Positions 20,485-39,781 of a DNA stretch of 39,790 bases are shown piece by piece; within the stretch, counting starts at the first letter, position 1, and the number at the start of each line of letters is the position of its first letter. This DNA comes from Mycobacterium sp. (GTDB lineage Bacteria; Actinomycetota; Actinomycetes; Mycobacteriales; Mycobacteriaceae): assembly GCF_035653355.1 (NCBI RefSeq), contig NZ_DASRBZ010000340.1:1-39790 (forward strand), in the 5' to 3' direction. The position numbers and the translations under genes are program-made. Below the pieces are notes generated by a model that ran no database searches, had not been told where the DNA came from, and saw only the letters and a program-made list of their open reading frames with translations.

Positions 20485-20596
20485 CGAAGCAGACCCGGAA
20501 GTGACTGATCCAAAGAGCCGGCGTAAGGGGTGAGAGAGCCGGCCGCGCAGGTTAAATGAGACGCAACCCCAATGTCCTCCGGGTCTGCCCTTCTTT
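20485..20596 (+). ncRNA. mcr11: Mcr11 (MTS0997)-like small RNA
   Basis: Lies between abmR and the Rv1264 cyclase, antisense to both. Has an 11-bp closing stem GCAGACCCGGA (20489-99)/TCCGGGTCTGC (20578-88), an inner GCCGGC pair and a TTCTTT tail. Confidence 0.7.
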
Positions 20597-30416: not shown

Positions 30417-31226
30417 GTGACTGACACAGCGCTGCCAGTGGAGTTGCGCGAACGCGACCCGCGGTTCATTCGTACGATGCTGCCGACTCTGTGGCTCATG
30501 GCGAGCGTCTGGTTTCGCGCCGAGGTCGACGGCTTCGAGAATGTTCCGGACGAGCCGGTGCTGTTCGTCGGCAATCACAGCGGCGGCGGCGCGACGCCCG
30601 ACACCGCTATCTTCCTGCTTGCCTATAACACATACTTCACGGTCGAGGGCCGACCGCTGTACGCCTTGGCGCATGACATCCTCACCAGGACGCCAGGCTT
30701 TGGTCCGCTGATGCGCAAGCTTGGAGTCGTTCCCGCCCACCATTCCTGCGCCGAAAAAGTTTTCACCAGCGGCGGTTCGGCCCTGGTCTACCCTGGCGGC
30801 GACGTCGAGGCGCTGCGGCCTTGGCGTGACCGCAACAGAATTGTGTTCTCCGGCCGAAAGGGCTTCCTGCAGCTCGCGCACCGATGCAACGTCAAGATCG
30901 TGCCGGTCGTGGCCACCGGCGGTCACGACACCTTCTTTGTTCTCAACGACGGCCAGCGCACCGCCAAGGCGCTGCGATTGGACAGAGTGACGCGTGTCAA
31001 AACCCTACCCGTGACTCTCAGCATCCCGTGGGGGCTGTCACCTGTTCCACTGCCGTTTGTTCCGCTGCCGGCAAAGATCCGGGTGCAGGTGCTCGAACCG
31101 ATCGACCTGCGCGCTCGATTCGGCCAGGAGCCGGACTGGGATCACGCCTACGACTACTTCACCAGCGTCATGCAAGTTGGACTGTCACGGTTGGCCAGTA
31201 AAACGGTTGTTCCGATGATCAGGTAA
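30417..31226 (+). CDS. Lysophospholipid/diacylglycerol acyltransferase (PlsC-like)
   Basis: FVGNHSGG..PD, LVYPGG and GRKGF motifs. Confidence 0.85.
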   Translation: MTDTALPVELRERDPRFIRTMLPTLWLMASVWFRAEVDGFENVPDEPVLFVGNHSGGGATPDTAIFLLAYNTYFTVEGRPLYALAHDILTRTPGFGPLMRKLGVVPAHHSCAEKVFTSGGSALVYPGGDVEALRPWRDRNRIVFSGRKGFLQLAHRCNVKIVPVVATGGHDTFFVLNDGQRTAKALRLDRVTRVKTLPVTLSIPWGLSPVPLPFVPLPAKIRVQVLEPIDLRARFGQEPDWDHAYDYFTSVMQVGLSRLASKTVVPMIR

Positions 31227-31230
31227 GGCG

Positions 31231-31707
31231 ATGGCGCAAACTGTCACGGTCGCCAAGCGCATCCGCCGGCCGCTCGAAGAGGTGGGCGCCTTGGTGGCCG
31301 ATCCGCACCGGTTCATCCCTGCACTGGCCACAATGGGCCGCTGCGAATACATCGCCGACAGCGACCAAGGGCAGCTGTGGGACGTATTTCTGGTCAGCGG
31401 AACCCTGCACCTTGGCGGCCGGGTGCTGGTGACGCACAGCGAAAACGGCCGGCTGAGCTGGCGATCGCTGCGCGGAACCCGTCACACGTTGGAAGGCCGC
31501 GTCGAGCGCGACGGCGACGCATGCCGCATCACCTTGGCCTTGACCTATTCACTGACCGGCCTGGTGATCGCCCGGTTCAACGAACTTATCGGACGCGCCA
31601 TCGTGGCCCGCAACCTGGAAGCCGCCGCCGAGGAGCTGCGCCACCGACTTGAATTCGAGAACGGCAACGTGCCGATCGACGAGTGCCGCGATTCTCGCTC
31701 TTCGTAG
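31231..31707 (+). CDS. SRPBCC/polyketide cyclase-like (START-fold) protein
   Basis: Beta-strand pattern, 'VADPHRF' N-terminal helix and C-terminal helix typical of SRPBCC; starts 4 nt after the acyltransferase stop. Confidence 0.65.
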   Translation: MAQTVTVAKRIRRPLEEVGALVADPHRFIPALATMGRCEYIADSDQGQLWDVFLVSGTLHLGGRVLVTHSENGRLSWRSLRGTRHTLEGRVERDGDACRITLALTYSLTGLVIARFNELIGRAIVARNLEAAAEELRHRLEFENGNVPIDECRDSRSS

Positions 31708-31773
31708 CTGCGGGAGATCCGAAGACATCCCGGAAGGAGCGCCCAGCAACGTTGCCCTTAGAGCATGCCAGCC

Positions 31774-31878
31774 TGTAGGTTCCCAAACTGCGTGGCGGAC
31801 GCTGAGACCCCTACCTGCTACGTTGCAGATTTCTCATCAAATTGGCGGATGCGTTTTTCTCATCTTCGTGGCGGATCC
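31774..31878 (+). repeat. Left end: terminal inverted repeat plus three ~21-bp putative transposase-binding repeats
   Basis: TTCCCAAACTGCGTGGCGGAC (31780-800), TTTCTCATCAAATTGGCGGAT (31830-50) and TTTCTCATCTTCGTGGCGGAT (31856-76). Confidence 0.8.
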
Positions 31879-31937
31879 TAGATCCGTGCGGTTGTGCAAA
31901 TTTTGATTCCACAGAATGCGCGGACCTCCGTGGCCGT

Positions 31938-33374
31938 TCAAGCTCGACCGAGCGGAACTGGGTGGGGGTGGGAATCATCCCAGGGCTCACCAACAGTTGG
32001 CAGGATGCGGACAAGTACGTGCCGCGTGCCGGCCTCACCGACGTATTCGTCAGCTAATTGTCTGACGGCGGTGCGGGTCTTGGTCTCCATCGTGCCGACG
32101 ACGCCGTCTTTCGACTTGATCGTCACCTCGGTGGTCTCGTCAAGCTCGGCGAGACCGACGTAATCGTAGAGGAAGCCACGTAGGAATATGTTCGTGAAGT
32201 CCTCGCGTACGACTTTGATGATCTCGTCCCAGAACGCGTTGCGATCGGCTGCAAGGATGGCTTCGCTGGTCAATTGAGGATCGCTAGCCCGATGCGCGGC
32301 AATCATCGGAATGGGGTGCGCGAGCGTGACCCACACCGATGGGAACAGCGGTGCTACGGCCCGAAGAGATTGTTCGTCGTCTTCAGGAAGAACGAACCCG
32401 GCTTGGCGCTCGGGGAGCGTATCAATGAGTCGCTGTACATAGGCGTCGTGGTGCCAGCCGACCATGAACTCGAGGTGCTTCACGGCTACGCGGTTCTCGA
32501 ACAGGCTAGTGAATAGTCTCGCGATGCTCGTTGCATCGAGTTCTATGGCCGGAACAAGTTCAATGTGGCTACCTTCGATTCGAAGGTATGGTTCCTGAGT
32601 CAGCGACCCAAACACTTCCTTGTTGTCATCAGCGGCGTCATCGAGGGTGATTTCGCTACCTTGTAGCAAGCGGTTAATGAGGTCTGCCTTGATGCTGTGA
32701 CGTGCTTCTGCCCGCGCTTGGGCATCGTCTGCAGCTAGCAGGCTCCCACTGACGGAGCCCGCGAGCGCTTCACGAAGACTCTCAACCTTCTTGGCGGGCA
32801 AGCGATTACCGCGAGCGTCGACGACCGAATACTCCTCGTCATTCCACCAGACAACCCAGAAGTAGCCGCCGCCGTAGTACGCGGCCTCCACCCGGGAAGT
32901 ACTAGTACGGAATTGCTTCTCTACAGCTAAGCGAACTGTGTCCTCTGTTGCGATCTCACCTGCCTCGCACGCCCTCCGCAGGAGTTGCTTGCCGTCAAAG
33001 ATGAAGACGCCCTCGTCCTTTTTCTCAAGCGACGCGAAGCTGCCGCGGACGTTGCCGTTCACCCCATTTAAGGCGACGAGCATACCTACCGTTGCGGGCT
33101 TGTCGGCTCGCGCGAGAAAGAGCTTCCCAAGAAACTTCTGCCAGGTGGGCATGTCAACCGGGTCTGCATACGCTTTTGCCTCGCACAGAAGCGGTAACAC
33201 ATGCGATGCCCCCATTACTCCGACCTCGCGTGCACCGATGACGTCGAGCTCGTTACCGCCGGATCCAACGACGTTGGAGTACACGCTTCCGTAGCCCTGG
33301 CTCTCGAGCTCGGTATGAACGAGTGCCTCCAGCTGCGCACCCTTGTCTTTGGCGCTGACTCCCAAAACCATCAT
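31938..33374 (-). CDS. Mrr-like PD-(D/E)xK restriction endonuclease domain fused to an uncharacterised C-terminal region (478 aa)
   Basis: KGAQLEALV...GNELDVIG...LCEAKAY...WQKFLG motif pattern; GGAGGT RBS 6 nt before ATG 33374. Confidence 0.75.
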   Translation of the reverse strand: MMVLGVSAKDKGAQLEALVHTELESQGYGSVYSNVVGSGGNELDVIGAREVGVMGASHVLPLLCEAKAYADPVDMPTWQKFLGKLFLARADKPATVGMLVALNGVNGNVRGSFASLEKKDEGVFIFDGKQLLRRACEAGEIATEDTVRLAVEKQFRTSTSRVEAAYYGGGYFWVVWWNDEEYSVVDARGNRLPAKKVESLREALAGSVSGSLLAADDAQARAEARHSIKADLINRLLQGSEITLDDAADDNKEVFGSLTQEPYLRIEGSHIELVPAIELDATSIARLFTSLFENRVAVKHLEFMVGWHHDAYVQRLIDTLPERQAGFVLPEDDEQSLRAVAPLFPSVWVTLAHPIPMIAAHRASDPQLTSEAILAADRNAFWDEIIKVVREDFTNIFLRGFLYDYVGLAELDETTEVTIKSKDGVVGTMETKTRTAVRQLADEYVGEAGTRHVLVRILPTVGEPWDDSHPHPVPLGRA

Positions 33375-33726
33375 GGCGGCACCTCCGACTGCTACGGCAA
33401 AACGACGAGACAAAATGTGTCCGTAACAGGCATCACCCGAGCTGCTTACCGCAGCCTAGCCGACTGCTGCGGTGTTTCGACCGCCTGCTTAGGAGGCGCA
33501 CCGCTCGGCGGAGCTCTTTCGGCGTCAGCCGGGTGTGTTCTCGGCGGAAGTCCCGCTGTAGTTCATCGCCGGTTGGAATCCGTGGGCGTCAAGCCGACGA
33601 AACCAGATCGTCGGCGTGGTCGCACGGGAAGGAAGCTCGACGACGCTACGATCAGTCCCGTGAACTGGTAGCGACTCACGTCTGCCTCGGCTGGCCGGCG
33701 TTGGGAGTCGGTCGAAAGGACAACCC

Positions 33727-36700
33727 GTGGCAAGGTCGGGAGCAGAGCGGGCGCGCGGCACCGCATGGCGCATCTGGGATCTGCACGTCCATACGCCGGC
33801 ATCGATCGTTCAGGAGTACGGCGGCAACACCGATGAAGTCTGGTCAAGGTACCTCACTGAACTCGCGAACCTGCCCGAAGACATCGGTGTCATAGGGATC
33901 AATGACTACTGGTTCCTCGATGGGTATCGGCGTGTTTCCGAAGCTTGGCGGAGCGGTAGGTTGCCGAACTTGGACGCGATATTCCCGGTGGTTGAGATGC
34001 GCCTGGATCAGTTCGGCGGTACCGAAGGCAAACTGTCACGTGTCAATCTTCACGTCGTCTTCGATCCAGACCTCAACCCGGATGTCATCCAAGCTCAATT
34101 CCTGAATGCTCTCCAACCTAAGCTGAGACTCTCCCCTGAGCACGAGTCTTTGGGATGGCAGGGCGTCATCACCGAAGAATCGCTAGCTGACCTCGGGAGC
34201 AAGATCAAGGAATCTGTGCCCGAAGACCAACTCAGCAAGTACGGTTCCGACCTCCGCGAAGGGTTCAACAACCTCAACGTCTCACTCGGGGATGTTCAAA
34301 ATGTGCTCTCTGGCCAGTATTTCAAAGGGAGAGCGCTGCTGGGAGTCGGAAAGACTGAGTGGGCGGATATCAAGTGGACGGATCAATCGATCGCCGCAAA
34401 GAAAAATGTCATCAACTCCGCAGACCTCATCTTTACAGCATTTCAAGACTCCAACAGGTGGAAGGCGAATGTCGAGTCTCTACGCGCAAGCAAGGTGAAC
34501 GATCGTCTTCTGGACTGCAGCGACGCTCACTATTTCGCAGGTTCGGACCAGCACATGCGCCTGGGCGCCTGTCAAACCTGGATGAACACCGCTCCGACAC
34601 TCGCCGGACTGGCATACGCACTTGGAGAGTTCGACCGCCGAGTTTACGTAGGGCTTGAACCGGTCGCTCTCGCTCGAATCCGTAGGAACCCCGAACGATT
34701 CATATCGAAAGTGACGGTGAAGTCGGATAAGGAGGACCACGAACTCTTCGATTATGAGGTCCCGCTCAACGCCGGATTCATAGCGGTCGTCGGCAACAAG
34801 GGCCAGGGCAAATCTGCCCTGCTTGACTGCATAGCCCTTGCCGGCAACTCGTCACGCAACAGGGAATTTGCATTCCTCACACCGACGCGCTTCCTCAGCA
34901 CCACAAGTGTGAAGGTCGCCAGAGAGTACTACTCGGAGCTCGAGTGGGCTACTGGAACGACGCGTCGTGCTCAGCTTCCTGACGAACACGATCGGTCTGC
35001 CCCCGTGTATGTCGAATACCTGCCGCAGGCTTTCGTCGAACGTGTCTGCAACATCGACCCTGCCATCGGCGACGGGGACGAGTTCGAGCGCGAGCTACGC
35101 GTCGTTTTGTTCACGCACATTCGAGAAGAAGAGCGGTCAGGACAGAAGACGTTCGACGCGCTCCTCGCTCAAAAGACGCGCGCATCGCAGGACACCATCA
35201 ATCGCTTACGTGACGACCTCCGAGCAGTCATCAATTCCTACGTATCGATCGCCTCGTTCCGCGCGGAGAATCGGCTGCCTGAGGTCGAGGGGCGCCATTC
35301 GTTGAAGGAAAACGAGGTAGCAGGCGCCGAAGCGGCACTGGAATCCGCAAGGGCCGCGCTCGCTGAGATCGACTTGGCTAGTCGCGATGATGGTGAACTC
35401 GAAGCCCTTAAGCAAAGATCCGAGGAAATCGAATCTGCGCGAACCGAAGTGCTTAACAAGCGGACTGAGAACGAACAGCGTCAAGCACGGATTCGACAGG
35501 CTGTCAGCACGATGGAGACAATCGCTCAAGAAGCCGAGGTTCTCCGCACGGACGCTGCCGAGCTCAACGCCCGGGCAGCGGACTTCTTCACCGCCGATGG
35601 CGATCCGTATGTATCTGTGACCATCGACAACATTCGCTATGACGCCTGGCGCGCGACCGTTGAGGCAGACCTTGCTGCAGCAAGAGTCGAGCACGACGCG
35701 CTGGTTCGGGACCTCGAAACGCAAGAGGAAGCACGGCGCCGAAATGCAGAGTCGCTCGCTGCCGCTGATAGCGCACGCGAGCGTGCCCGTCAGCGAGTCC
35801 TCCAGTCAGAGGAACGCTTAGCAGCCTTAGTTGGGGACGAGAACGACGAGGAATCACTCAGCGGCCTTCGCGCGCTACGCGCTCGTATCACCGAGGCTCC
35901 CGCGGAGATGGAGAGCCTGCGCCAGGAGGTCATCGAGCACGCCGGCCGCATACACAGGGCACTCCGCGCCCAACTCGACGCAGTAGAAGACCTTTATGCA
36001 CCTGCGTCTGAATTCATTGCGCAAGCCGAGGTCGTTCGGAATGCAGGCCTCGAGTTCAACGCAGAGCTTCGTATGCTGCCGACTTGGCGGAGTATTCCAA
36101 GGAGCCTCGACGGTCGGCGCAACGGCGACTTCACTGACTGGCTCGCTGAGTTGCCCCAGCGGATTGAGGACACGAGTTGGGACCAGCTCTCCCCGCAGCT
36201 CTTGGAGGCCCTCGTCCGCTTAGAACACGAACGAGGGGAGCCTGACGATCCGTTCAGGAATCCCGCGCACGCCCTGCGCGGGACCACGGACCTGGACGAA
36301 TTCTTAATGAGCATGTTCGACCTGTCATGGCTAGAAGTTCGCTTCGGTCTGACTGGCGACGGTCTACCGCTATCCCAGCTGTCTCCGGGCCAGCGCGGGC
36401 TCGTCCTCGCGCTGTTTTACCTCGTAGTTGACCGTCGTACCACGCCACTGCTTCTCGATCAGCCGGAGGAGAACCTCGACAACGAGACCATTGCATCGAA
36501 GCTTGTTCCCGCGATACACGAGGCCGCCGGGCGGCGTCAGACCATCGTGGTCACGCACAACGCAAACCTGGCCATTGTCGGCGATGCTGATCAGATCATC
36601 CACTGCCAATTGCGAGATCTGCGGTTTACCGTCAGCAGCGGAAGCATCGCTGAGCTCGACGTCGCACAATTCGCGTTGAACGTCTTGGAAGGGACCAAGC

Positions 36701-36753
36701 CTGCGTTCGACAACCGCCGTCATAAGTACGAAGCGTTCCCTGAACTCACATGA
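33727..36753 (+). CDS. PHP domain + coiled-coil ABC ATPase (Ppl-like / TrlF-family), putative anti-phage protein
   Basis: PHP motifs WDLHVHTP, INDY and CSDAH; Walker A GNKGQGKS (34792); long coiled coil; LSPGQ; LLLDQPEENLDN; VTHNAN; AAGGA RBS. Confidence 0.85.
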   Translation: MARSGAERARGTAWRIWDLHVHTPASIVQEYGGNTDEVWSRYLTELANLPEDIGVIGINDYWFLDGYRRVSEAWRSGRLPNLDAIFPVVEMRLDQFGGTEGKLSRVNLHVVFDPDLNPDVIQAQFLNALQPKLRLSPEHESLGWQGVITEESLADLGSKIKESVPEDQLSKYGSDLREGFNNLNVSLGDVQNVLSGQYFKGRALLGVGKTEWADIKWTDQSIAAKKNVINSADLIFTAFQDSNRWKANVESLRASKVNDRLLDCSDAHYFAGSDQHMRLGACQTWMNTAPTLAGLAYALGEFDRRVYVGLEPVALARIRRNPERFISKVTVKSDKEDHELFDYEVPLNAGFIAVVGNKGQGKSALLDCIALAGNSSRNREFAFLTPTRFLSTTSVKVAREYYSELEWATGTTRRAQLPDEHDRSAPVYVEYLPQAFVERVCNIDPAIGDGDEFERELRVVLFTHIREEERSGQKTFDALLAQKTRASQDTINRLRDDLRAVINSYVSIASFRAENRLPEVEGRHSLKENEVAGAEAALESARAALAEIDLASRDDGELEALKQRSEEIESARTEVLNKRTENEQRQARIRQAVSTMETIAQEAEVLRTDAAELNARAADFFTADGDPYVSVTIDNIRYDAWRATVEADLAAARVEHDALVRDLETQEEARRRNAESLAAADSARERARQRVLQSEERLAALVGDENDEESLSGLRALRARITEAPAEMESLRQEVIEHAGRIHRALRAQLDAVEDLYAPASEFIAQAEVVRNAGLEFNAELRMLPTWRSIPRSLDGRRNGDFTDWLAELPQRIEDTSWDQLSPQLLEALVRLEHERGEPDDPFRNPAHALRGTTDLDEFLMSMFDLSWLEVRFGLTGDGLPLSQLSPGQRGLVLALFYLVVDRRTTPLLLDQPEENLDNETIASKLVPAIHEAAGRRQTIVVTHNANLAIVGDADQIIHCQLRDLRFTVSSGSIAELDVAQFALNVLEGTKPAFDNRRHKYEAFPELT

Positions 36754-37096
36754 GTCTCGCTTTCGTGTATCCGTGAGCCTCATGTCCAGTGGCACTACGC
36801 GGCCAAGCTTGAATCATTCCCGCCGCAAGTTTCCCTCGACAGTTCGTAATAGTTGCGTAGTCCGTAGAACTCGTCGGCGATATTCATGGCTACCTAGTGG
36901 TCGCGGCACCATGCCGATAACTGCGTAATATGTCGTCGCCGTCGTGCCGGTCGCTGGTGACATCGTCCCCAGAATGACGTGTCTGCCCGTCGGTGCCCAT
37001 GCCGCGCCTCCTAAACGGGATGCCGAATTGCTCGGCCGGCGCCGCAGTAATCACCAATCGCAGCCATCCGCTGTAAGGGATCGTTACAGACGTAAT

Positions 37097-37316
37097 GACC
37101 TCGTCAAGCATGACCAATCCACGACCGTGGGAACCATCACCGAAGCGGGCTTGCAGTCTGTGACAGGCGATTCGGCCCGGATCCTGGTGAGTGTATCGGT
37201 GAAGAGAACAACTGCAGTTTCACCCGCGCCACGGCAAAATAGCTTCCGGATGCGTATCGATGTGAAAACGGGTCGGCGATGGGGCGAAGGTGTCCAACGT
37301 GGAATTCATATCGTGA
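37097..37316 (+). pseudogene. 3' fragment of an Mce-associated membrane protein (Mam-type), frameshifted
   Basis: Reads DLVKHDQSTTVGTITEAGLQSVTGDSARILVSVSVK..FRMRIDV, then shifts +1 in the A-run at 37265-68 to KRVGDGAKVSNVEFIS*. No 5' half or TM segment. Confidence 0.75.
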
Positions 37317-37650
37317 AAACCCTGGTGCCATAGCGGGATTGGCCCAGTAACAGCGCGAAGCCGAAGAACCGGCCCGTCGAGGTTCTAGCCGCGGCAGCGC
37401 CAGCGGCAGTTTCTCGTGGACAACTGCGGTTATGCATGCCAGTAACAGCGGAGTCTAGTCCTAAACCGCTCCCTACCCAGAAACTCGCGCCTGCTGAACA
37501 CGCACCGTGACCGCTAACAGCTGTGAGTTAGCAACCGTTACAGGATATTTCGTCATACCAGCCGGGTAGTTGGCATTGCGCGCGGCCCTATGTTTTGTGG
37601 CGTCAACGCGCATGCAGCCAACGCCAGAGATCCGAGTAGTGAGGCAGCCG

Positions 37651-37914
37651 TCAGCGCCTGTAAACGTCCGCGCGATGATCGACACGCTGAATCAGCACCA
37701 GTGAGTGATCCTCGTCGATCCGGTATAGCAGGCGGTACGGGCCGCGCCGGGCGCTATGCAGCCCGGTCAGTTCACGCCTCAGCGGCTTGCCGACGCGGCG
37801 CGGTGCGTGCGCCAGCTCGCCGAACGCGAACTCAATCACGGCCGCCAGCACCCGCGGCGGCAACTTGTGGAGGTCACGCCGCGCGATGGCGGTGAACCGA
37901 ACCGTGTAACCCAA
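37651..37914 (-). CDS. relG: RelE-family toxin (RelG/RelE2-like)
   Basis: YTVRFTAIARRDLHKLPPR..VGKPLRREL..SARRGPYRLLYRID..DHRADVYRR, very similar to Rv2866 as recalled. Confidence 0.88.
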   Translation of the reverse strand: MGYTVRFTAIARRDLHKLPPRVLAAVIEFAFGELAHAPRRVGKPLRRELTGLHSARRGPYRLLYRIDEDHSLVLIQRVDHRADVYRR

Positions 37915-37922
37915 CGGCGGCG

Positions 37923-38204
37923 TCAGTCGGCACGCCGAGGCACGCCGAACTCGGCGCGAATTTCATCCTCGCCGTACGTGCGCCCAGCGGCAATGTCGGC
38001 ATCGGCCTCGGCGATTGATTCCTTTATCCCTGGCCGAGAAAGCCAGTACAGCGTCTCTTGGAGCGATTCCCATTCCTCGACGCCGACGAGCACCGCCGCC
38101 GGCGCACCGTTTTTGGTGATCGTGATCTGGTCCTGCGTTTGGGCGACCGCATCGACGTACTCGTTAAGCTTGTCTTTAATCTTCGAAATCGGCAGTATCC
38201 GCAC
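37923..38204 (-). CDS. relF: Phd/YefM-family antitoxin (RelF/RelB2-like)
   Basis: MRILPISKIKDKLNEYVDAV..ITITKNGAPAAVLV..WESLQETLYWL, very similar to Rv2865 as recalled; lies upstream of the toxin. Confidence 0.9.
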   Translation of the reverse strand: MRILPISKIKDKLNEYVDAVAQTQDQITITKNGAPAAVLVGVEEWESLQETLYWLSRPGIKESIAEADADIAAGRTYGEDEIRAEFGVPRRAD

Positions 38205-38210
38205 GCCACC

Positions 38211-38230
38211 ATGTTAGCCTAAATATAGGC
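38211..38230 (-). promoter_or_regulatory. Leaderless relFG promoter and autoregulatory palindrome
   Basis: -10 TAACAT (38216-38211) lies 6 nt before the GTG start, next to the palindrome GCCTA-AATA-TAGGC (38217-30). Confidence 0.55.
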
Positions 38231-38426
38231 CAGCGACAGGCGCTAATTAAGGCCCCATAATGTTACGACACCACCGACCGACTTGGCCTTACAAGTAGTC
38301 ACCGGCCACAGCAGCATCTTCTAACTGTCGGTGATGGGGAAGCCGCAACCGCAACCTCGAGTGAATCGCCGAGGCTCGCCCCTGATCCATACCTAGCCGA
38401 GCTAATCAGTTTCCGGTCTTTGTGAC

Positions 38427-38486
38427 GGATCCGCCACCTTTACGTCGCGAAGTCTGAAATTCCGCCACTTAAAAATGGAACCTACA
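38427..38486 (-). repeat. Right end: terminal inverted repeat plus two putative transposase-binding repeats
   Basis: Reverse complement reads TGTAGGTTCCATTTTTAAGTGGCGGA...GTGGCGGATCC. TCCGCCAC cores are at 38430-37 and 38461-68, and GGATCCGCCAC (38427-37) is the exact inverse of 31868-78. Confidence 0.8.
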
Positions 38487-38522
38487 CCAGCGCCGCCCTC
38501 AGGTGATCGTTTGATCCGCTGG

Positions 38523-38574
38523 TTGACAGTCTCGCGCTCATGTCGTATCAATAAGACATGACCGTCGGTTTGTC
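38523..38574 (+). promoter_or_regulatory. cyp130 promoter (probably leaderless) with two GACA-N12-TGTC operators
   Basis: TTGACA (38523-28), 17 nt, TATCAA, then ATG 38558. Palindromes at 38525-44 and 38555-74. Confidence 0.55.
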
Positions 38575-39781
38575 TCATCAGCCTCGGTTTCAACTTGCTA
38601 CTGCCGAGACCTGGGCCAATCCGTGGCCGATGTACAAAGCGTTGCGCGACCACGACCCGGTGCATCACGTCGTTCCGCAAGACCGGCCCGAGCAGGACTA
38701 CTACGTGCTGTCTAGGCACGCCGATATCTGGGGGGCCGCCCGCGACCACGACACGTTCTCGTCGGCGCAGGGCTTGACCGTCAACTACGGTGAGCTGGAA
38801 ATGATTGGGCTGCAAGACAACCCACCGATGGTCATGCAGGACCCACCGGTGCACACGGAGTTTCGCAAGCTGGTGTCACGTGGTTTCACCCCGCGCCAGG
38901 TCGAGGCGGTGGAGCCCAAGGTCCGCGAGTTCGTTGTCGAGCGGATCGAACGGTTGCGCGCCAACGGCGGCGGCGACATTGTCGCTGAACTGTTCAAGCC
39001 GCTGCCGTCGATGGTCGTCGCGCACTACCTGGGCGTGCCCGAAGAGGACCGCACCCAGTTCGACGGCTGGACGCAGGCGATCGTCGCGGCCAACACCACC
39101 GAGGGCGGCGTCGCCACCGCCGGCGACGCGGTCGGCTCGATGATGGCCTACTTCGCCGAGCTCATCGAGCGTCGCCGCAGCGAACCGGAGGACGACACGA
39201 TCTCGCATCTGGTGGCGGCCGGCGTCGGCGCCGACGGCGATGTCGCCGGCACGTTATCGATACTCGCGTTCACGTTCACCATGGTCACCGGCGGCAACGA
39301 CACCACAACTGGAATGCTCGGCGGCTCAATGCCTTTGCTGCACGAGCGCCCGGATCAGCGGCAGCTGCTCGTTGACAATCCCGACCTGATCCCCGACGCC
39401 GTCGACGAGCTGCTGCGTCTGACCTCGCCGGTGCAGGGGCTCGCGCGCACCACCACCCGCGACGCGACGATCGGCGACACCACCGTGCCGGCCGGCCGCA
39501 AAGTGCTGCTGTTGTACGGATCCGGAAACCGGGATGAACGCCAATACGGTGCTGACGCCGGCGAACTCGACGTGACCAGGTGTCCGCGCAACATCCTGAC
39601 GTTCAGCCACGGCGCCCACCATTGCCTGGGCGCGGCGGCGGCGCGGATGCAGTCGCGGGTCGCGCTGACCGAGCTCCTAACCCGCTGCCCAAACTTCGAG
39701 GTCGACGAGTCCGGGATCGTGTGGGCCGGCGGCAGTTACGTGCGACGTCCCCTGTCGGTGCCCGTCACGGTGACGGCGTGA
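38558..39781 (+). CDS. cyp130: Cytochrome P450 CYP130 (Rv1256c ortholog)
   Basis: I-helix TGGNDTT, ExxR (ELLR) and heme ligand FSHGAHHCLG; synteny. Confidence 0.93.
   Translation: MTVGLSHQPRFQLATAETWANPWPMYKALRDHDPVHHVVPQDRPEQDYYVLSRHADIWGAARDHDTFSSAQGLTVNYGELEMIGLQDNPPMVMQDPPVHTEFRKLVSRGFTPRQVEAVEPKVREFVVERIERLRANGGGDIVAELFKPLPSMVVAHYLGVPEEDRTQFDGWTQAIVAANTTEGGVATAGDAVGSMMAYFAELIERRRSEPEDDTISHLVAAGVGADGDVAGTLSILAFTFTMVTGGNDTTTGMLGGSMPLLHERPDQRQLLVDNPDLIPDAVDELLRLTSPVQGLARTTTRDATIGDTTVPAGRKVLLLYGSGNRDERQYGADAGELDVTRCPRNILTFSHGAHHCLGAAAARMQSRVALTELLTRCPNFEVDESGIVWAGGSYVRRPLSVPVTVTA

Follow-up and report, generated by a model that had tools for sequence, protein, structure and literature searches.

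A non-autonomous Tn7-like element in a mycobacterial genome, its autonomous relatives, and the reused attachment sites and triplet-rich junctions of its family

The ends of Tn7 are described, in the available part of PMC9308760, as three spaced sites on the left and four overlapping sites on the right. Tn7-like elements of Actinobacteria are already catalogued, and NCBI holds a TnsA model. In the available text and partial supplement of the survey by Benler et al. (2021), TnsB rows from Mycobacteriaceae are placed in clade 2, which is termed experimentally uncharacterised (PMC8649781). Here we describe an element found in a stretch of 39,790 nucleotides (the window) from a host that is a mycobacterium by its gene content and named look-alikes; its two end layouts resemble the spaced left and overlapping right ends given for Tn7 in the same part of PMC9308760.

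The element extends from 31774 to 38486 (6,713 bp), encodes no transposase of its own and has a GC content of 58.8%, compared with 66% in its flanks. Repeats of ~20 bp with the pattern TTCY-N9-TGGCGGA occupy both of its ends, with cores at 31792, 31842 and 31868 on the forward strand and at 38430 and 38461 on the reverse strand. At either end, position 19 is where the outer core starts, the sequence TGTAGGTTCC is common to both termini (identity at 10 of 10 positions), and left repeats 2 and 3 are identical at 17 of 21 positions. An earlier note on this DNA had given the same core positions, the same offset of the outer core at both ends and the same match between the left repeats, all of which we reproduced. 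It had also counted two repeats at the right end; their two cores stand, and additional sites are present there, among them a degenerate one with the core CGACGTA and an inverted one. The flanks consist of CCAGC plus C on the left and CCAGC on the right, that is, a 5-bp duplication plus one additional base. The features of the element and its surroundings are as follows.

31768..31773, forward strand: left copy of the target duplication CCAGC (31768-31772) and the extra C (31773); from the sequence.
31774..31875, forward strand: left end (Tn7L-like), in which the terminal TGTAGG is followed by three sites of ~20 bp set apart from one another (31780-31799, 31830-31849, 31856-31875); from the sequence, 58 distinct ends with the same layout and the alignment of an independent contig.
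31938..33413, reverse strand: cargo gene for a protein of 491 aa whose N-terminal domain is that of an Mrr-like restriction endonuclease (PF04471, E=2e-5).
33727..36753, forward strand: cargo gene for a 1008-aa TrlF-family AAA/SMC-like ATPase with a distant likeness to the anti-phage protein Ppl (NF045780, 531 bits, cut-off 350; PADLOC Ppl, E=3e-17).
37651..37914, reverse strand: cargo gene for a RelE/ParE-type toxin of a type II toxin-antitoxin pair (PF05016; best PDB match 3g5o_B, Rv2866, E=3e-40).
37923..38204, reverse strand: cargo gene for a Phd/YefM antitoxin (PF02604, TIGR01552).
38410..38486, reverse strand: right end (Tn7R-like), in which the terminal TGTAGG is followed by one full site at 38480-38461, one degenerate site at 38460-38441, a site reduced to its core at 38436-38430 and, innermost, a site in inverted orientation at 38410-38429; from the sequence and its position upstream of tnsA in autonomous relatives.
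38487..38491, forward strand: right copy of the target duplication CCAGC; from the sequence.
38523..38558, forward strand: TTGACA...TGTC-N10-GACA stretch that precedes the P450 gene at 36 bp from the right end, a putative component of the attachment site; conserved both in empty relatives and at other sites that are occupied.
38558..39781, forward strand: host cytochrome P450 gene adjoining the insertion (PF00067), present in 21 of 24 same-genus relatives.

The left boundary is confirmed as a boundary of mobility by a contig of 16 kb from a separate soil run, which aligns at ~93% identity from exactly 31774 to 36904 and whose preceding 2,120 bases are unaligned; in this contig, the same left end and cargo stand in a different flank. 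Taken alone, the 8-mer core is a weak signal, with 11 matches in the window against 4.7 expected. When a 20-bp matrix, the training set of which included the window's own ends, was applied to the whole 4.47-Mb genome, the top four scores (22.8-24.9 bits) fell on four sites of the element and the next-best, an isolated match, scored 20.0; the 30 best genome matches contain no further cluster besides the element ends. A tRNA-targeted island was ruled out, since the window contains no tRNA and there is no Rfam match near the element. Elsewhere in the window, the Rfam sRNA ncrMT1302 matches at 20499-20596, slightly over its gathering score.

The cargo is likely to serve defence. For the TrlF-family ATPase this role is one that we infer, the match to the Ppl model lying far under the cut-off of that model, and a scan of the cargo proteins against family models gave no match to a cas family. 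The RelE protein of the toxin-antitoxin pair (37651-38204) is very close to Rv2866, and such pairs may ride on this transposon family. About 900 bp of cargo (36754-37650) contain no recognisable gene. On the host side, the P450 gene is one that we take to be cyp130, and the TTGACA stretch preceding it was not called by a sigma-70 scan. An acyltransferase gene and an SRPBCC gene (30417-31707) lie between an oxidoreductase gene and the element, and in several relatives the oxidoreductase and P450 genes are adjacent, so this interval is variable beyond the present element.

No genes for the enzymes that would have mobilised the element were found in its own genome: a tblastn search of the assembly (91% complete) found no tnsA, tnsB, tnsC or tniQ, further searches of it for TnsB, TnsD and NF033179 were also empty, and within the element there is neither a transposase nor a tns relic (two matches only, with E values of 0.009-0.015). 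The element would have lost its tns genes and persisted with its defence and toxin-antitoxin cargo.

Relatives of its ends are widespread. With up to one mismatch, the terminal pattern was detected in 72 of 401 same-genus genomes, against 4 for the reversed control, and an exact scan of the genomes of all species gave at least 120 stretches, with Mycobacterium, Mycolicibacterium, Microbacterium, Nocardia, Micromonospora, Kribbella and others among the matches listed. Metagenome matches to the pattern are mostly due to chance (1 real locus in 119). Among 286 sequences picked either by the motif or by tnsB, we counted 58 distinct spread ends (cores at 20/70/96), 138 packed ends (20/40/51) and 3 unclear ones, 24 single-core pattern matches, non-actinobacterial ones included, being left out as unconfirmed; 11 loci with a close TnsB have no end recognised by the rules applied. 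The earlier suggestion that the motif could serve as a handle for an autonomous parent and for related mini-elements is borne out, both having been found by motif searches. One 8-kb mini-element (L032:3891-6428) has genes for a SAVED-domain protein and a SMODS nucleotidyltransferase, a CBASS-like defence. On plasmid NZ_CP020811 of M. dioxanotrophicus (L437:20001), a left end whose junction carries (GCT)4 is followed by groEL and by genes for aldehyde and alcohol dehydrogenases; this catabolic cluster may be cargo, and no right end lies within 20 kb. Another left end lies close to the ESX/type VII cluster on the mycobacterial plasmid NZ_CP076857 (L436:20001), which is a likely vehicle of spread.

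The two kinds of ends differ in what lies inside them, as tnsA occurs within 1.3 kb of 21 of the 138 packed ends (13 retrieved motif-first and 8 upstream of tnsB matches) compared with none of the 58 spread ends. The packed end is situated directly upstream of operons with the full order tnsA-tnsB-tnsC-tniQ/tnsD, often plus a second tniQ/tnsD, which makes it likely, as judged from these sequences, that the repeats are the TnsB sites of an actinobacterial Tn7-like family. The parental TnsA matches NF033179 (TnsA_like_Actin) with 228 bits at a cut-off of 110, TnsB has rve and Mu-transpos_C domains with DDE motifs and CAST TnsB proteins as its PDB matches, TnsC matches TniB/AAA_22 with Walker A and B motifs, and TniQ/TnsD matches PF06527 and has the TniQ zinc-finger motif. 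The TnsD proteins are 700-890 aa long, and 4 of 7 scanned TnsD-type proteins have a C-terminal LysR-type HTH. A lysine is expected at the nuclease position of TnsA; in 7 of 12 aligned parents it is replaced by valine, so cut-and-paste transposition is not assured. The branch concerned (L340:8395-9234 and six other parents) reads VDVV instead of VDVK, with an invariant arginine five residues on. The best parent, L340 (metagenome contig Ga0335075_10001197), has a complete tnsA-B-C-tnsD operon at the same P450 site as the window, and its right end, which includes the same degenerate middle repeat, is the most similar to that of the window (0.76) among the tns-linked right ends.

The end layout, the link between the packed end and tnsA-B-C-tniQ/tnsD, the 5-bp duplications in relatives and the repeated, oriented use of sites are all observed, and we hold it to be very probable that the element genuinely belongs to a Tn7-like family and is non-autonomous. 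The neighbours anticipated in the earlier note, a Mu-type DDE transposase and an AAA ATPase, are present together with TnsA and TniQ/TnsD, which specifies the Tn7 type. An IS21- or Tn402/Tn5053-type element, which would share the TG...CA termini and the iterated repeats, is a very improbable source of these sites: IS21 has istA-istB only, without TnsA or TniQ, and Tn402/Tn5053 has TniA-TniB-TniQ without TnsA, whereas tnsA and a long TniQ/TnsD are present in every full operon examined beside these ends, and the matches of the parental TnsB to IS21/IS481 models are weak and below the cut-off. The parents combine a DDE TnsB, TnsA, an AAA+ TnsC and TniQ/TnsD with the termini, the iterated sites of ~20-22 bp (spaced on the left, overlapping on the right) and the oriented, fixed-distance insertion of Tn7-like elements. 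The earlier note had also allowed for a motif that lacks any transposase locus and is instead the operator of a known host transcription factor. The tnsA linkage speaks against this, and we regard it as scarcely credible; nothing besides the direct repeats and one short palindrome recommends it, the motif has a fixed position behind the terminal TGTAGG, the genome has no other cluster among the matches described above, and the core follows the transposase. Sister TnsBs have the same end layout with different cores (CTGCAC, CTTCAW, TGTCGAA) that cluster on a quick TnsB tree, where the core type requires 16 changes (all labels) against a shuffled mean of 28.6, with 0 of 200 shuffles as low, a result inflated by related sequences. 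A constant layout whose core varies along with the transposase is what TnsB sites would show, and does not suit an operator of the host.

Four kinds of sites are reused by the family, each in a single orientation: the dnaB 3' end, the P450 promoter, the lysE divergent promoter (a site with a gene that is presumably lysG) and the end of a plasmid-type transglycosylase gene, whose product resembles transglycosylase and NlpC/P60 proteins of an ESX plasmid. Among the 138 right ends, 41 follow a dnaB 3' end, 36 abut another end, 8 are at the lysE divergent promoter, 8 at the end of the transglycosylase-type gene and 6 face a P450 gene, the remainder being unassigned. At the dnaB, P450 and lysE sites, the right end is always towards the anchor. 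The distance from TTGACA to the right end at the P450 site is 36 bp in the window, 37 bp in L340 and, overall, 36, 37, 37, 37, 38 and 41 bp, plus 7 and 8 bp (n=8, with L177 and L340 added), and in a further two genomes a left end lies behind the oxidoreductase gene upstream of this site. At lysE, 6 of 8 right ends are 37-38 bp from one anchor with unrelated intervening DNA, and at dnaB 33 of 40 are 16-21 bp behind one anchor. One insertion at lysE (L042:5454-8825) interrupts the opposing LysR-type gene at its start, so this site is not neutral. In a small sample of 26 chromosomal dnaB 3' ends, chosen without regard to transposon ends, 11 are occupied by a Tn7-type end according to a fixed rule and three more by eye, which marks this site as a major route by which defence and catabolic islands enter mycobacteria.

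On the reading that we favour, TnsB would bind the repeats, a TnsD, with its TniQ core and long C-terminal region, would read the host sequence, TnsC would place the right end ~37 bp from that sequence, and the dnaB, P450 and lysE sites would each be served by different TnsDs. The TnsD of L340 is 34-47% identical to all others seen, in keeping with a target of its own, as a single example. The link of a TnsD to the P450 site is represented by this one contig: a search for a second autonomous element there found none, and the five genomes with the most similar TnsDs (42-45%) have no P450 gene in the stretches examined. The TnsD tree does not separate cleanly by target, as there are at least two TnsD groups among the dnaB-site elements. 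The 36 abutting right ends mean that tandem stacks are common, unlike what Tn7 target immunity would lead one to expect, and these arrangements suggest that immunity may be weak. At dnaB 3' ends (L286-L315), subfamilies of ends with the cores CTGCAC, TGTCCA, TGTCGT and CTTCAW share the site and stack; their differing TnsB specificities may let them escape mutual immunity.

Fixed target sites were not considered in the earlier note, nor were the unusual junctions to which we now turn. A perfect 5-bp duplication flanks 5 of 18 end pairs in relatives and a clean one is absent from 13 of the 18, some of which are probably not true pairs; back-to-back ends are most commonly separated by 5 bp. Of the 136 ends that abut no other end and have 140 nt of flank, 12 have at least three copies of a triplet within 20 nt, against 0-3 at offsets of 20-120, 0.8 in shuffles and 8 of 946 post-stop windows (p=5e-7, this and other triplet p-values being inflated because the ends are related and not sampled independently). 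A triplet duplication finishes 0-4 nt from the junction at 35 of the 136 ends, with 4-16 in controls. Left and right ends alike have such runs, and so does the finished sequence of plasmid NZ_CP020811. In L042, a coding gene contains 19 extra nt, including (GCA)4; four other loci provide the native sequence of this gene, and the run is demonstrably added sequence. We found no empty allele of the present strain.

To account for the triplets, we tentatively propose, with somewhat less than even confidence, that aborted transposition cuts were refilled by NHEJ. TnsA and TnsB would cut one end and leave 3-nt 5' overhangs, both of which Ku and LigD would fill before re-joining, so that each aborted event would copy three flanking bases on either side; errors would alter the triplet, and the single extra C in the window would represent a partial fill-in. 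Mycobacterial NHEJ fills in 5' overhangs, and the host genome of the element encodes Ku and the LigD polymerase. According to the available parts of the sources, Tn7-type excision cuts 3 nt outside the end, with single-end cleavage seen in vitro (PMC13598128), and the LigD polymerase realigns and adds untemplated bases (PMC7072297). The proposal agrees with the enrichment at ends, the near-junction duplications, the added bases in L042 and the runs on both ends and in the finished plasmid. Against it are the absence of enrichment in sister subfamilies with other cores (3 of 22, p=0.28), the lack of separation by the TnsA state of the nearest parent (triplet-rich ends in 8 of 29 cases with Lys and 16 of 54 with Val), the missing lysine in the TnsA of L340, a period of 4 that is also raised at offsets 0-2, spacer lengths of 5+3n in 10 of 19 instances (p=0.06) and the relatedness and non-independent sampling of the ends.

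An unlikely, though by no means negligible, origin of the triplets would be full rounds of excision, re-joining of the donor and return to the same attachment site, or else slippage while the 5-nt gaps left by insertion are repaired. The reuse of sites in tandem stacks accords with it, as does a triplet run at the expected end position in 3 of 15 dnaB ends scored unoccupied (background 21 of 946; p=0.004). Re-insertion would predict repeats of period 5 on the far side only, but period 5 is rare and the additions also stretch the distance from anchor to right end (52 versus 37 at lysE, 40 versus 19 at dnaB). We think it improbable that the elements simply prefer existing repeats or that the runs are assembly artefacts. 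A preference of Tn7 for long GAA-TTC repeats in vitro is reported in the part of PMC2886061 available, and many of the loci come from metagenome bins; yet the native lysE-divergent gene has no such run where L042 has one, and runs are present in the complete plasmid and on 5.5- and 6.1-Mb contigs (L437, L079, L037).

The ends, the parental genes and the attachment sites are now supplied for what is presumably the branch of Tn7 that had been described as uncharacterised, and laboratory strains of mycobacteria could be modified by site-specific integration at the dnaB site, which is neutral and used in one orientation. If the triplet junctions were made by NHEJ after TnsA cuts, they would document the fate of aborted Tn7 breaks in an end-joining host, which is invisible to work in E. 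coli. A broader and distinctly speculative conception, which we consider possible rather than probable, is that aborted Tn7-type cuts in NHEJ-proficient actinobacteria are filled in to give a growing triplet tape at the element ends, and that the family homes, besides the heavily used neutral dnaB site, to promoters controlled by transcription factors (P450/TetR, lysE/LysR) through a TnsD with a captured regulator-like HTH. If this were true, transposons together with NHEJ would generate microsatellites and leave a record from which past firing of the transposase could be counted.

The attachment sites and the junction triplet runs appear to be new, with the reservation that supplements of Faure et al. 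and Benler et al. beyond those available to us may hold ends or sites. A literature search for Tn7-like elements with dnaB as an attachment site gave no matching report within its reach, many subscription papers and supplements lying outside it. The text and the part of the supplement available for PMC8649781 contain no 'dnaB', and that part of the supplement has no match to the end motif; the available main text of PMC10293859 contains no 'Mycobacter', 'Actino', 'dnaB' or 'LysR', and the att-site table in the accessible part of PMC11406308 has no dnaB. Neither these sites nor triplet-rich junctions are mentioned in the portions available of PMC8649781, PMC10293859, PMC11406308, PMC11014353, PMC11551767, 10.1101/2024.11.13.623437, PMC7072297 and PMC2886061.

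Among known systems, the Actinobacteria-dominated clade 2 of Benler et al. and the proteins of NF033179 have the same kind of transposase as the present family, and the defence cargo fits the theme of that survey as far as its available parts describe it (PMC8649781). The dual TniQ/TnsD elements of Faure et al. (2023), in the part of PMC10293859 at hand, have a counterpart in the two TniQ/TnsD genes of many parents here. Tn6022/AbaR of Acinetobacter similarly has a fixed att site and nested and adjacent insertions despite immunity, but it uses TniQ and TnsF at comM, and the available text makes no mention of triplet-rich junctions (PMC11014353). Tn7 of E. coli, in which TnsABC and TnsD act at glmS, shares with the present family the TGT termini, the three spaced left sites and the overlapping right sites, a tns operon that starts at the right end, in some end pairs a perfect 5-bp duplication, and an oriented insertion just beyond the 3' end of a conserved gene, which is dnaB in the present family. 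The family differs from Tn7 in its site sequence and inverted innermost right-end site, in a TnsD of the lengths given above that often bears the C-terminal LysR-type HTH, in targets that include the regulatory regions of P450 and lysE, in its frequent tandem stacks and in the replacement of the TnsA lysine in one branch, and the copy in the window has no tns genes at all.
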